Virus record (IMG/VR): IMGVR_UViG_3300027845_000349 | Coordinates: 23,805-87,804 of that record | Origin: a virus | Taxonomy: Duplodnaviria; Caudoviricetes | DNA length: 64,000 nucleotides | Strand: one strand, 5' to 3' | In this document: positions 5,774-54,745 of the stretch, one piece after another | How positions within the stretch are numbered: the stretch's first letter is position 1 | How the letters are laid out: every line of letters starts with the position of its first letter | Position numbers and translations under genes: made by a program | Notes under the pieces: model-generated | What the model saw: only the letters and a program-made list of their open reading frames with translations | What the model was told of the DNA's origin: nothing | Database searches by the model: none

Positions 5774-6487
5774 ATGGATAGTATTGTTAAGATTAAAAAA
5801 AACAGATGTTTTATCGATTCTGAAGGAATTGCTTATTTGTCAGAGAATGAACACAGGGCTGTAACTAAGCTAATCAGGACTTACAAGTCTGATTTGGAAG
5901 AGTTCGGGGTTTTAACACTTGTAGTGTCTAAACCTACAAGTAAAGGAGGTAGACCTAAACATACATGGGAGATGAACGAAGAACAAGCAACTCTTCTTAC
6001 TACATTTATGGGCAACAGTAAGAAAGTAAGGGAATTTAAAGTTAAACTTGTAGAAGAGTTTTACAAAATGAAGAGTTCTCTTATAGAGATGTCAACTAAT
6101 AAGAGAAACCAGGAATGGTTAACAAACAGAGAAGATGGAAAGCTTCAGAGAAAATCCACTACGGATGTAATTCATAAATTTGTTGATTATGCAGTATCTC
6201 AGGGTAGTGGATCCGCAAAAATGTATTACATGAACATCTCAAAGCTTGAGAATAAGTCATTGTTTTTTGTTCAGGAAAAATTCCCCAATCTTCGGGAAGT
6301 AATGAATAATAGACAATTATCCTTCATTAAATCTGCTGACATTATTGTGGAAGAGGCAATTATTGAAGGGCTAGAAAAAGAAATGTTTTACAAAGACATT
6401 TATCAACTTTGTAGAAAAAGGGTAGAGGCTTTTTCAGATCTTATACCCAAAACAAATATACCAATGATGATAAAGGATAACAAATGA
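5774..6487 (+). CDS. Rha-family phage regulatory protein
   Basis: H..V.KLIR.Y..DLEEFG, GGRPK...MNEEQATLL.TFM.N...V.EFK..LV.EF; likely start ATG 5774. Confidence 0.8.
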   Translation: MDSIVKIKKNRCFIDSEGIAYLSENEHRAVTKLIRTYKSDLEEFGVLTLVVSKPTSKGGRPKHTWEMNEEQATLLTTFMGNSKKVREFKVKLVEEFYKMKSSLIEMSTNKRNQEWLTNREDGKLQRKSTTDVIHKFVDYAVSQGSGSAKMYYMNISKLENKSLFFVQEKFPNLREVMNNRQLSFIKSADIIVEEAIIEGLEKEMFYKDIYQLCRKRVEAFSDLIPKTNIPMMIKDNK

Positions 6488-7089
6488 AAACTAAACTAAT
6501 TTTAATAATGGCAGCTTTAATCTTAACGGGGTCTTTATTCGCAGATGAAATTACAATCTTTGAAGGTTCATGTTATAGATGGAATAAAACTCTTAAAAGT
6601 TTAAATGGCCATGAATACTGGATAAGGTATGAAACAGAAACTAATAAATTCTATCTTAAAACATATGATTTTATAAATACAATTTGGGTAGAACTTGATC
6701 ATTCAGACATTGAAAAAATGAGAGAGACATTTACTAAATACTTAGAGTGGGAGAGTAAAGCAGTAAGTGAACAGGTTAAAATAGAGAAAGAAATACCAGA
6801 ATCAAACATAAGAACTATATCTATGTGGAAATCTTCAAAATATCATCAATCTAATAGTGCTGAGTTAGCATTTTTATTCTTTTCTCAGACTAAAAATTGG
6901 CATCAATTAGTAATATTTTCAAATAAGATGATATCAAAAGACAATGAATATATAGATTGTGAAATAGAAGGATTGTATATAGACAAAGAAGATGTTGAGC
7001 TTTTATTAAATGGTATTTCCGAAGAAAATATTAAAATTAAGATGGATGAATATAACGAGCTTCAGAAAAAAGAAGATATGTTTAACTAG
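6484..7089 (+). CDS. Secreted/periplasmic hypothetical protein
   Basis: N-terminal signal peptide MKTKLILIMAALILTGSLFA. Confidence 0.6.
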   Translation: MKTKLILIMAALILTGSLFADEITIFEGSCYRWNKTLKSLNGHEYWIRYETETNKFYLKTYDFINTIWVELDHSDIEKMRETFTKYLEWESKAVSEQVKIEKEIPESNIRTISMWKSSKYHQSNSAELAFLFFSQTKNWHQLVIFSNKMISKDNEYIDCEIEGLYIDKEDVELLLNGISEENIKIKMDEYNELQKKEDMFN

Positions 7090-20572: not shown

Positions 20573-20671
20573 GGGGATATGGCAGAATGGAGCCTTTCGA
20601 GGCGAATGCACAATTAGTCAATAATTGATCCATGGTGACACATGGTGGAGGAACAATACCTTCTATCTCCA
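20573..20671 (+). ncRNA. Non-canonical tRNA-like RNA with Ala-type acceptor and TCA at the anticodon position
   Basis: GGGGATA/TATCTCC-A acceptor; D-stem GCA/TGC with an inserted GCCT-TTCG-AGGC hairpin; CAATT-AGTCAAT-AATTG arm; long V-arm; T-arm GGAGG-AACAATA-CCTTC. Confidence 0.7.
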
Positions 20672-21540
20672 ATAGCCCTTGTGGGTGAATAATTTTTTTT
20701 TAGTTTTTTCATTACATCTGAATTATTTAACAGATGGGTGATAGAACTCTTATGCTTTTAGCCGGGAATAGAAGAGGCCTTTGGTTCTCGGCTTTTTTAT
20801 CGGGGGATAAATGGAATGTAGTAAATGTGAGAATATGAAAGATACCTGCTCTGTAGAGAATCTTTATGCTATAGGATATCTAAAAGCATGCCCTAATATA
20901 AAAGAGCCAGTACTGAACGAATATGGATGGCTGCTTAATCCTATGAGTGAGAAATACCAATTATCTAATGGCCATATCTTTTTAATTCCTGAAGAAATAA
21001 ACCAAAAATGGATCATGACTTGGATGATTACTAAAAACGGATCCGGAAGTTGTGGAAAAACAAAACCAGATTTATATATTTTCTCATATAAAAAAGCAAT
21101 TGAAGAAATTTTAAAGCACTACAGATTAAACGAATTAGACATAACCGAAATAAAATATATTTTTGAAAATAAGTTTGATAGTAGAAGAATTTTCATGGAA
21201 AAAGAAATAGATGAAGTTGAAGAAAAACCCGAAGAAATATATGTAAGTCCTTTTGAACATATAGAGTATGGAAATATTGGCGATCAGTTAGATTTATTCT
21301 AAATAAGTTAATAAAGTAATAAAAATAACTATTGATCAAAAGATTAAATGGCTATATTATTGATAATAACAATAATTATAGGAGAACTAAAATGTTCACA
21401 CAAGTTAAATGTACAGGAGAGGTAGAGAAGCTTCTGAAAGAGCATAAAGAAAAACACTTTTCTCATCTTAAATCATGGGCTGCGTATTTTATAGAAATGT
21501 CCAGACAAAGAGCTGAAGAAGATAATAAGGGGGGAGGTAA

Positions 21541-37854: not shown

Positions 37855-37856
37855 AT

Positions 37857-37930
37857 GCTCCGGTAGCCCAACTGGTAGAGGCATGGGACTTAAAATCCTT
37901 GTGTTGACAGTTCGACTCTGTCTCGGAGTA
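37857..37930 (+). tRNA. trnL: tRNA-Leu(TAA), short variable loop
   Basis: Cloverleaf; anticodon TAA 37891-37893; 5-nt variable loop; A73; no encoded CCA. Confidence 0.9.
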
Positions 37931-37936
37931 ATTCAA

Positions 37937-38010
37937 GCCTTGGTGGCCTAATTGGTATAGGCGCTGGTCTTAGGAACCAGACTTTGAGAGTTCGAGTCTC
38001 TCCCGAGGTA
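37937..38010 (+). tRNA. trnL: tRNA-Leu(TAG), short variable loop
   Basis: Cloverleaf; CTGGT-CTTAGGA-ACCAG; 5-nt variable loop; A73. Confidence 0.9.
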
Positions 38011-38016
38011 ATACAT

Positions 38017-38101
38017 AGAAGAGTATGTTAGCGGCTATACACGCAGTCTTGAAAACTGTTTACACTTAACGGTGTCGTGGGTTCGAGTCCCACCTCTTCT
38101 G
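38017..38101 (+). tRNA. trnS: tRNA-Ser(TGA)
   Basis: AGAAGAG/CTCTTCT acceptor, anticodon TGA 38050-38052, long V-arm, G73. Confidence 0.92.
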
Positions 38102-38105
38102 TTAT

Positions 38106-38189
38106 GGACAAATGCGATAATCGGTATTCGGCTTGATTGCTAATCAAGTGATCTGAAAGGGTTTATAGGTTCGAGTCCTATTTTGTCCG
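38106..38189 (+). tRNA. trnS: tRNA-Ser(GCT)
   Basis: GGACAAA/TTTGTCC acceptor, CTTGA-TTGCTAA-TCAAG, long V-arm, G73. Confidence 0.92.
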
Positions 38190-38193
38190 ACAT

Positions 38194-38277
38194 GGGTAGG
38201 TATGCAAACTGGTGAAGCAAACGGTCTGTAAAACCGTGACGTAAGATACATTGTGAGTTCGAATCTCACCTTACCCA
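38194..38277 (+). tRNA. trnY: tRNA-Tyr(GTA)
   Basis: GGGTAGG/CTTACCC acceptor, ACGGT-CTGTAAA-ACCGT, long V-arm, A73. Confidence 0.92.
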
Positions 38278-38338
38278 CTTCTTCAAGTTCTAAATTCTGG
38301 GGCTTTTTTTATTTGTTAAATATGTATATAATACTATC

Positions 38339-50047: not shown

Positions 50048-51124
50048 TTATCCTTTATATTTTCTTATGTCTTTAGATGCCGGACCATAACTTAAGTATA
50101 CGTTATTCATTTCTGGAATATTACTAATGATAAAATCAACAAATTCCGCTTCTTTTTCAAAAATGACAACTGAACCACCATGAACAACTGGAAAAGCATC
50201 TCCCATCTGATCAAGACAAGTTATAACTAAATTTCTGTTTTGAGAATTCCTAATACCAGAATCTATATTTATAGAATAATTCAGCATATCAAGATCTAAA
50301 ACTCTGGTCTTGAAAACACCTTGAAATCCATCATTAAGATTTGTTTCATTATTATTAAATGGATTGCATTTAATTTCAGAACAATATCCGTTTCCATGTC
50401 TTGTCTGATAGCATCTTGTAACAAGAAATAATTCAGAATCACATAGGCTTACTTCCTGAGTACCTACTCTGGATCTTGTAACATTGGGGAAAATTCCATA
50501 ATCCATGTCCAAGAGAATACCCTGAGAGCTTTCATATATTACATTATCAAGATCTATATCTGTATTTATTAAATCCTCAACAGGTAACGATAAGCATTTT
50601 TCTATAAACCCATCTAATGAAGACCAATCATACCCTTTATAATAATCCATAATACTTGAAATTTTAGCTCTAAATATTTCAGGATACATAAGGTCTTGAA
50701 AATAAAGATGATAATTATCTTGTTCTCTTTGAATTGTCGCTCCAAAACCAACACCAACAGATCCGTGATTATTTGATTCATCTTCAGACATATTCTTTAT
50801 TTTATCAAAAGGAGTTGTAACCGGACACATTGGATTTATTTTAATTACTGGATTTACTCCTTTCTCTTTAAGGATAGATAATTCCTTAATATATCCTACA
50901 GGATCAAAAGTCTTGCAATTCCAATAAGTAGGATTTCCTCTTAGAGTTCCAGACCCGAAGTTTGAATGTATATGGTTTTTGTCTCCTATAACAACATTAT
51001 GAGCTGCCTGATGTCCTCCTGAGTATCTTATTACTGTTGCTTCTGGATTTAAAGAACATCTCCAATCTGTTACAAGTCCTTTACCCTCATCTCCAAATCC
51101 TAATCCTATAACAACCTCTTTCAT
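50048..51124 (-). CDS. Adenylosuccinate synthetase-like (divergent PurA family) protein
   Basis: GLGFGDEGKG, RYSGGHQAAH, ESSQG.LLD, FPNVTRS, TRHGNG, TCLD, SYGP; the canonical TTGR aspartate loop is absent. Confidence 0.9.
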   Translation of the reverse strand: MKEVVIGLGFGDEGKGLVTDWRCSLNPEATVIRYSGGHQAAHNVVIGDKNHIHSNFGSGTLRGNPTYWNCKTFDPVGYIKELSILKEKGVNPVIKINPMCPVTTPFDKIKNMSEDESNNHGSVGVGFGATIQREQDNYHLYFQDLMYPEIFRAKISSIMDYYKGYDWSSLDGFIEKCLSLPVEDLINTDIDLDNVIYESSQGILLDMDYGIFPNVTRSRVGTQEVSLCDSELFLVTRCYQTRHGNGYCSEIKCNPFNNNETNLNDGFQGVFKTRVLDLDMLNYSINIDSGIRNSQNRNLVITCLDQMGDAFPVVHGGSVVIFEKEAEFVDFIISNIPEMNNVYLSYGPASKDIRKYKG

Positions 51125-53806: not shown

Positions 53807-54003
53807 ACCACAGTTTAACTGTCAAAGGTTAGCTGTGGTATATCTATAAGACATTATCGACTGATGTTTACGGTACGCTTTAAACTATCTGGACAGCGGT
53901 AACAATGGTTTCGGTAAACCTACAAAGAGTTTCAAGCTTGAGTATCGTCTAATAATAGATAGTACAGATTGTTTGAGATATTTCAACTGTAAAAGAAATA
54001 CTC
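53807..54003 (+). ncRNA. Candidate structured RNA upstream of the second tRNA-like element
   Basis: ORF-free; four or more nested helices. Confidence 0.35.
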
Positions 54004-54008
54004 ATCAA

Positions 54009-54111
54009 GGGAAGTTAGCTCAGTTGGTAGAGCAAGCCAATATAGCATGTTGTGAAAAATCGCAAACTTGTATAATTGGTTATGTCATAGGTTCAAGCCC
54101 TATACTTTCCA
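54009..54111 (+). ncRNA. tRNA-like RNA with Ala-type acceptor and extended (37-nt) anticodon region
   Basis: GGGAAGT/ACTTTCC-A acceptor; canonical D-arm GCTC-AGTTGGTA-GAGC; AGCCA/TGGTT stem enclosing 37 nt; T-arm ATAGG-TTCAAGC-CCTAT. Confidence 0.8.
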
Positions 54112-54745
54112 TATCTCACAAAGTGGGATAAACAACTATAAAAAACGGTGCTTGTGGTTGCATGGCTCAACTGATAGCCTAAATTAAAATTTATGGGGGT
54201 AACCATGGGACTATCAAAAGATGTAGAAGAAGCTATAAAAGCTAATCTTTCCGGACAAACAGCCGGAGTTTTAAAGAAGTATATTGAAGAGCATGAACAG
54301 CTTGTTGAGGATTATGGAGATTTAGAACTAGAGATAGAAAGTCTTAAAAATACTTTAACTCTTATAAAAGGCGAAAATACAACGTTATCTTCTTACAGAA
54401 ACCGTTTAAAAGAGATCGAAAAAGGTGAAACAGAGCTTTCCGAAAAGAAAATACAATTCAGGATTGATTCTGGTATTCAGGAAATAAATGAAAAACACAG
54501 CAATCAGAGAGTAGAAGATCATAAAGCAATGTTTGATACTGTTTTCAGAAATACAGTTTTAAGAGAGAATAAATTAAAAAATGTTGTAGAGTCACAGTAT
54601 TGCACCAATTATGACAATAACAGTAACCCTATAGCAACCAAAATTTCAGATATGACTGTTCCTGTTGTAGACACCAAAGAAATAACCGAAGAATAGTTTA
54701 TATAGCTCTGTTTAACCACAGGGCTATTTTTTTAAAGGAGAAGAT

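Follow-up and report, generated by a model that had tools for sequence, protein, structure and literature searches.

A phage gene for a tRNA-shaped RNA with an alanine-type acceptor and a closed helix in place of the anticodon loop, a candidate non-decoding tRNA mimic

In this study, we describe a tRNA-shaped RNA gene of 103 nt (54009-54111, plus strand) in a bacteriophage genome, in which a long closed helix takes the place of the anticodon loop and the acceptor stem carries the marks of an alanine tRNA. We propose, with moderate confidence, that this gene is functional and encodes a non-decoding tRNA mimic, and that it is one allele of a swap-prone cassette. Its intact shape, its alanine marks and its position in a slot that in related phages holds other anticodon-defective look-alikes suggest that it is probably a working mimic and not a broken or intron-bearing tRNA. 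The window analysed here, a stretch of 64,000 nucleotides, covers bases 23805-87804 of a record that represents a complete viral genome of 87,804 bp with 96-bp terminal repeats and a G+C content of approximately 32%; unless a relative is named, coordinates refer to this window.

Results

Sequence and structure of the RNA

The RNA has normal D and T arms, a 5-nt variable loop and no encoded CCA. Its acceptor stem is formed by GGGAAGU (54009-54015) and ACUUUCC (54104-54110), contains a G3.U70 pair and is followed by A73 at 54111. The D arm (54018-54033) reads GCUC-AGUUGGUA-GAGC and the T arm (54087-54103) AUAGG-UUCAAGC-CCUAU. The anticodon stem, AGCCA (54035-54039) paired with UGGUU (54077-54081), encloses 37 nt (54040-54076), within which UUGUGA-AAAA-UCGCAA (54050-54065) forms an apical hairpin. 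The preliminary description of this DNA had already listed these stems, the G3.U70 pair, A73, the 37-nt enclosed region and the apical hairpin, and we found all of them at the positions it gave. The bases of the canonical tertiary core, as read from the sequence, are also all present (U8, A14, G15-C48, G18G19, G46, U54-A58 and C56).

In the MFE fold, the cloverleaf is retained and all four stems are fully paired. The "anticodon" arm is extended to 47 nt (54035-54081) and has no 7-nt anticodon loop: a 7-bp stem, AGCCAAU/AUUGGUU, is followed by a 3x3 internal loop, AUA/AUA, by the pairs GCA/UGU and then GUUGUGA/UCGC.AAC, and is closed by an AAAA cap, the long arm stacking coaxially on the anticodon stem. 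The folding energy is -29.6 kcal/mol for the whole RNA (z -3.41) and -12.9 kcal/mol for the arm on its own (z -3.34), and in each case none of 200 shuffled sequences was as stable. With Rfam model RF00005 the RNA scores 48.4 bits over model positions 1-71 (gathering score 29), and the alignment places a 36-nt insertion at the anticodon loop. ARAGORN misses the gene under default settings and, when run with the option -i, reports tRNA-Tyr(ata) with a 30-nt intron and the anticodon AUA. The features on which decoding depends, namely a 7-nt loop on a 5-bp stem, U33 and a purine at position 37, are not found, the loop being replaced by the structured 37-nt insert. The Rfam score and the fold thus bear out the earlier proposal of a well-formed tRNA shape that is unable to present an anticodon.

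The full alanine identity set, G3.U70, A73, G1-C72 and G2-C71, is present in the sequence and paired in the MFE fold. According to the established identity rules of alanyl-tRNA synthetase (AlaRS), G3.U70 is the alanine mark, and charging by AlaRS is independent of the anticodon. An alanine anticodon (NGC) is absent, there being no anticodon loop, and a hypothetical spliced form would carry AUA. Judged by its identity elements, the RNA can probably be charged with alanine.

The 27-nt core of the insert occurs once in the window and once in the genome, and on this ground we rejected a repeated or mobile element as its source. No stretch complementary to the long arm, which could serve as its antisense partner, was found within approximately 600 nt or elsewhere in the genome. 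We also rejected an attP or integration-site reading, as the phage has no tyrosine integrase and the locus contains a whole cloverleaf with a promoter of its own.

A conserved promoter and a conserved 3' leader frame the RNA

Directly upstream of the RNA, a promoter scan identified a conserved block on the plus strand (53969-54008) with TTGAGA at 53973-53978, an 18-nt spacer, AATACT at 53997-54002 and a further 6 nt. This sigma-70-like promoter puts +1 on or beside G1, so that the transcript is predicted to be leaderless. The 35-mer at 53969-54003 is present in a single copy in the genome and is 100% identical in the related phage G001 and in the metagenome contigs L015 and L016, and its 22-mer core is also found in contig L017. 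In four of these five loci, L017 being the exception, the promoter lies 6-7 nt ahead of the GGG start of tRNA-like bodies that differ from each other. A search of reference genomes with the promoter word gave only two matches, both of which are chance matches inside coding sequence.

On the 3' side, an 8-bp hairpin predicted by folding, UAUCUCAC-AAA-GUGGGAUA (54112-54130, plus strand), begins at the base following A73 and opens a conserved leader that reaches the ribosome binding site (RBS) of the gene at 54193. The syntenic locus was reached through homologues of this gene (54193-54696), which are 55% identical at the protein level and are located on contigs L022 and L023. The leader (54112-54192) aligns with L022:2623-2713 and is approximately 88% identical in these contigs over the first ~75 aligned bases. 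Such similarity at the nucleotide level, next to a protein with only 55% identity, suggests that the leader is a constrained regulatory RNA. No terminator is predicted between the tRNA-shaped RNA and the gene at 54193. Searches of Pfam and PHROGs returned nothing informative for the proteins encoded at 54193-54696 and 20811-21302 or for their neighbours.

A second hairpin type was noticed near these loci. At 53808-53838, a hairpin has a conserved loop of 16-19 nt, (U)UAACUGUCA(A/U)AGGUU, which is also found in L017 right after the promoter, in L018 at around nt 14-37 and in L022 at around 2143-2172. The stems of this hairpin vary among the phages yet pair in each (CCACAG/CUGUGG, CUAUUAC/GUAAUGG, CUGGA/UCCAG and CCACCA/UGGCGG). 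The conserved promoter block includes a word resembling this loop, AACTGTAAAAG, and the last hairpin of the leader (54161-54176) has CAACUGAU as its loop. The hairpin with the UAACUGUCA-type loop could represent a so far unrecognised motif, of RNA or operator type, that is associated with the tRNA-like loci.

Different tRNA-like bodies occupy the same slots in related phages

The related phage G001 has a genome of 81 kb and proteins that are typically 50-85% identical to those of the window phage (terminase, 66-67% amino acid identity). It is without the 54009-54111 locus and has the promoter and a tRNA-like body at the slot that matches the 20-kb site of the window. This body is a cloverleaf of 71-73 nt that has C33 in its loop and contains an A.G pair, and it starts 6-7 nt past the promoter. 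At the same distance from the promoter, L015 has a 99-nt RNA with a long insert and L016 a 72-nt RNA without an anticodon stem, and L016 has a second RNA of 95 nt upstream. In L017, the 22-mer core of the promoter is followed by a structured element and then by a regular tRNA-Ser. Two further contigs were reached through homologues of the gene at 20811-21302: L018 has an RNA of 83 nt, in which a 7-bp stem carries a 12-nt loop, and L019 has a regular tRNA. At the true syntenic locus in L022 and L023, a body of 127 nt with the acceptor GGGGGAA/UUCCUCC-A is found in place of the 54009-54111 body.

Among the 11 distinct bodies from the window phage and its relatives, nine miss a standard anticodon arm, the defects being a tetraloop, loops of 6 or 12 nt, a missing stem, a C33 or G33 loop, branched arms or long inserts. 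The tRNA-like bodies of this lineage keep the acceptor/T-arm half, mostly with the alanine marks, and have anticodon arms that are defective or replaced, which shows that the absence of an anticodon is the norm at these slots and not an accident. A GGG start combined with a UCC-A end, and hence G3.U70 and A73, is found in 6 of the 11 (the window RNAs at 54 kb and 20 kb, the G001 body when read in its G-start register, both L016 RNAs and the L022/L023 body). That G1G2G3...U70C71C72-A73 recurs in these otherwise unrelated bodies, at two slots and in related phages, upholds the earlier suggestion of selection on the acceptor end.

The 3' context is likewise shared. None of the 11 bodies has an encoded CCA, all have a U at +1 or +2 past the discriminator, and a small hairpin is located within 1-4 nt downstream of every body. 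The stem sequences of this hairpin differ among members (CCUC/GAGG, CCC/GGG, GCGCC/GGCGU, CCAUU/AAUGG and UAUCUCAC/GUGGGAUA); the compensatory nature of these stems was read by eye, and MAFFT sets the stems of the members in different columns. All three components of the cassette, a leaderless conserved promoter, a tRNA-like body and a hairpin just past the discriminator, are found at the 54-kb locus. We take this arrangement to be a swap-prone cassette, in which the promoter on one side and the 3' hairpin and leader on the other stay fixed and frame interchangeable tRNA-like bodies.

The body at 54009-54111 itself was not found again in viral contigs by an exact DNA pattern with a variable gap, by a pattern for the 3' hairpin or through the neighbouring protein encoded at 54193-54696 or the protein encoded at 20811-21302, nor was it found in phage records by blastn of the region. 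As no orthologue of the body was found, the long arm has no support from covariation. In a custom search for modules made of an acceptor and a T arm, no others were detected in the window phage or in G001 beyond the 54-kb and 20-kb RNAs and the G001 body.

Two further observations were made in the relatives. The tandem RNAs of L016 (reverse strand, 6465-6559 and 6729-6800) are of the alanine type; their best matches are the ends of the Rfam tmRNA model, with 19.2 and 28.3 bits, respectively, both below the gathering score, and they resemble TLD-only mini-tmRNAs. Another conserved type of tRNA-like RNA, with the acceptor GGCAAUG/CAUUGUC-A, is present upstream of the slot in L022 and L023 (L022:2238-2310) and in L015 (reverse strand, 99-173). 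Its anticodon arm ends in a 4-nt loop in L022 and in a 6-nt loop in L015, and ARAGORN labels the members "tRNA-???(cc)" and "Ser(cga)".

A sister RNA in the same phage

A sister tRNA-like RNA (20573-20671, plus strand) with the acceptor GGGGAUA/UAUCUCC-A and G3.U70 occupies the slot where relatives such as G001 have the conserved promoter and a tRNA-like body. It had been noted before as the first of two oddities with an alanine acceptor and indeed has a real cloverleaf-like fold, and it gave no Rfam match at E<=1.

The region 20573-20810 and its counterparts in G001, L015, L016, L018 and L019 contain, past the tRNA-like body, a conserved GUGAAUAAAUUAUU tail, a AACAGGUGAUAG-like box and an intrinsic terminator, all of which are located just ahead of the RBS of a gene for a Cys-rich protein of 163-169 amino acids. 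This downstream unit could be an sRNA or an attenuator.

The phage infects a bacterium

The phage tRNA-Tyr has a G1-C72 pair and a long variable arm and is thus of the bacterial type. A Pfam sweep over the 106 open reading frames of the window identified YqaJ, Phage_rep_org_N, a DnaC/IstB-like loader, NinG, Rha, Lar, TetR, Peptidase_M23 and DNA methylases, and Shine-Dalgarno sites and intrinsic terminators are present in the genome. Based on the tRNA-Tyr, the gene content, the Shine-Dalgarno sites and the terminators, the host is a bacterium, which is probably low in G+C. The terminase is 32% identical to that of Brevibacillus phage Emery and 28% identical to that of Thermus phage MN1, and among 401 genomes sampled from one bacterial phylum, 4 have prophage-like genes with 33-38% identity to it. 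Genes for EndA, RtcB or an Rnl-type ligase (PF01974, PF01139 and PF09414) are absent from the phage, and an smpB gene is absent from both the phage and G001.

Discussion

A non-decoding tRNA mimic

From the promoter, the 3' frame and the fold, we infer that transcription starts at G1 from the sigma-70-type promoter; because of this start, no RNase P step would be needed. The 3' end would be produced by a cut directly past A73 in the manner of RNase Z, with which the U at +1 and the lack of an encoded CCA would agree, and CCA would be added by the host. The RNA would then take the normal L shape, and its G3.U70/A73 acceptor would make it a substrate of the host alanyl-tRNA synthetase. It would not read a codon, because a closed, imperfect helix of approximately 17 bp replaces the anticodon loop. 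We hypothesize that such an RNA acts as a tRNA-shaped competitor that occupies a host factor recognising the tRNA body or the acceptor end; candidate targets are a tRNA-targeting defence nuclease or toxin, EF-Tu, or machinery that uses alanine-tRNA, and the competitor would offer them no anticodon loop that can be cleaved or decoded. Of the roles that we considered for the RNA, that of a competitor seems the most likely one.

A processing module, a relic or an intron-bearing tRNA

The best rival to the mimic is a processing or stability module acting in cis, which we consider unlikely. According to this explanation, the tRNA shape at the 5' end of a late transcript recruits RNase Z, and RNase P as well in loci with several elements, and the downstream mRNA is released with the conserved protective hairpin as its new 5' end. 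Parallels are known from tRNA punctuation, from MALAT1-mascRNA and from the tRNA-miRNA units of herpesviruses. Such a module would account for the unbroken path from the RNA to the gene at 54193, where a terminator is not predicted, for the start of the hairpin 1-4 nt past the discriminator in all members and for a hairpin and leader that are far better conserved (~88% of nucleotides) than the adjacent protein (55% of amino acids). The interchangeability of the bodies would also be expected if only their top half matters, and the flanks, which are more conserved than the body, could be the functional parts, with the bodies as passengers or processing handles. However, 6 of the 11 bodies have G3.U70, which neither RNase P nor RNase Z needs, transcription could simply begin at the hairpin itself if the promoter were placed there, and in its 20-kb slot the family has a terminator between the RNA and the next gene.

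Somewhat less probable in our view is a neutral relic, that is, a captured tRNA that was hit in its anticodon loop by a 30-nt insertion, possibly mediated by a duplication. Short AU direct repeats, AUAUA and UAUAA, flank the insert, the same insert is found in no orthologue, the locus is missing from G001, and ordinary tRNA-Lys and tRNA-Ile genes of phages show 75-80% identity to the exon body. As the 3' T stem and the variable region are like those of ordinary tRNAs, a recent disruption of a tRNA is possible. However, all stems and tertiary positions are intact, and the insert is not disordered but forms a significantly stable helix that is coaxial with the anticodon stem. The gene is also preceded by a promoter that is conserved at 100%, and anticodon arms at these slots are, as a rule, defective. 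Moreover, with the insert taken out, the loop sequence would be AUAUAAU or AUAUAGU, and a tRNA with such a loop and A34 is abnormal as well.

We regard it as very unlikely that the 30-nt excess, placed by ARAGORN -i in the canonical 37/38 register (54046-54075, plus strand; flanks AUAUA(G)/(G)UAUAA), is a bulge-helix-bulge intron which host enzymes cut out and ligate to give a 73-nt tRNA with the anticodon AUA. Group I and II introns had been set aside earlier since 30 nt is far below their size, and we agree. Like a bulge-helix-bulge pre-tRNA of archaea or eukaryotes, the RNA has a short intervening sequence at 37/38, and an arrangement of 3-nt bulge, 4-bp helix and 3-nt bulge can be drawn: positions 32-35 (AUAU) pair 4 of 4 with GUAU at 54070-54073, between the bulges AGC and AAU and with an upper helix beyond. 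This register is matched by 0.7% of composition shuffles (chance ~0.007) and is called by ARAGORN -i. But the AU repeats behind it are self-complementary by nature, and the bulge-helix-bulge fold has -21.8 kcal/mol and is 7.8 kcal/mol worse than the MFE fold, with a pair probability of approximately 0.001. The virus is of the bacterial type and encodes no EndA, RtcB or Rnl-type ligase, and, to our knowledge, no protein-spliced tRNA introns exist in bacteria. The product would be anomalous too, unlike that of an archaeal or eukaryal pre-tRNA, as it would have A34 and a mismatch between identity and anticodon. Any excision of 30 nt yields AUA on an alanine-marked body, which is a tyrosine anticodon without the long arm required by bacterial TyrRS, and this product would misread UAU, the seventh commonest codon (33.9 per 1000). 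In addition, the loop defects of the relatives are not of a kind that splicing could mend. A true intron that is removed from this bacterial-virus tRNA by an unrecognised protein pathway of the bacterium or the phage, with the Ala-accepting AUA tRNA recoding or deliberately mistranslating UAU during infection, seems slightly more far-fetched still.

Relation to tmRNA and other known RNAs

Mycobacteriophage DS6A encodes a CDS-less, TLD-only tmRNA, and a molecule similar to TLD-only tmRNA has been reported to inhibit endogenous tmRNA, perhaps by titration of SmpB (PMC4131195, PMC11915505). Like the DS6A RNA, the RNA described here is phage-encoded, of the alanine type (G3.U70, A73) and non-decoding. 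It differs from it in a complete 4-bp D stem and a prolonged anticodon stem of 5-7 bp, scores as a tRNA and has no encoded CCA, and the phage is without SmpB. In established structures of tmRNA, SmpB fills the space of the D stem and the anticodon stem. A scan of the whole phage with RF00023 hit only T loops of the tRNA cluster (<=15 bits) and gave no match at 54009-54111 or 20573-20671, and ARAGORN -m found no tmRNA in the family loci. We therefore do not follow the preliminary description in its comparison with a minimal tmRNA: the D stem is complete, the anticodon stem is genuine, RF00023 does not match and the phage provides no SmpB. By the RF00023 result and the stems that occupy the place of SmpB, the RNA at 54009-54111 is not a tmRNA.

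Ordinary phage tRNAs, which serve counter-defence or codon supply as does, for example, the tRNA-Lys of T5-like phages, are closer in sequence, as the body is 75-80% identical to them and the D and T arms are canonical. They differ in that the RNA at 54009-54111 lacks the anticodon loop and has G3.U70 in place of the acceptor of tRNA-Lys or tRNA-Ile. In the bacterial Y RNA-like YrlA, too, a long helix at the position of the anticodon stem is joined to a tRNA-like elbow. However, its topology is reversed compared to the RNA described here, which has an open acceptor end and a closed long helix, and in which no Ro-binding motif and no Rfam match to YrlA were found. The architecture, a full cloverleaf with a long closed helix in place of the loop alone, is new, and so is the cassette organisation, with its invariant leaderless promoter and 3' leader.

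Phage tRNAs are viewed mainly as replacements for host tRNAs that are destroyed by defence nucleases. The 54009-54111 locus points to a different class, in which the tRNA shape and the alanine mark are kept and decoding is impossible. Fast exchange of bodies inside an unchanging frame is what characterises an arms-race module. Should the RNAs be charged and also bind a host factor, they would inhibit translation-linked immunity or ribosome rescue at the RNA level or serve as decoys in these processes, and they would add a natural example of design on a tRNA scaffold. The conserved frame, that is, the promoter and the hairpin past A73, provides a handle for finding further members.

Additional features of the phage genome

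The only regular tRNAs of the phage are encoded at 37856-38278 and comprise Leu(UAA), Leu(UAG), Ser(UGA), Ser(GCU) and Tyr(GUA), a set that matches the long-arm families of bacteria exactly. Both Leu tRNAs have short variable loops, and G001 is without any of the five. Human SLFN11 is reported, in work cited by PMC13056530, to cleave type II tRNAs, which is a lead only. Finally, an adenylosuccinate-synthetase-like gene is located at 50048-51124 on the minus strand (PF00709 at 4e-31; PHROG annotation, PurZ-type enzyme) in a block that is missing from G001, and this gene may point to a modified purine metabolism.
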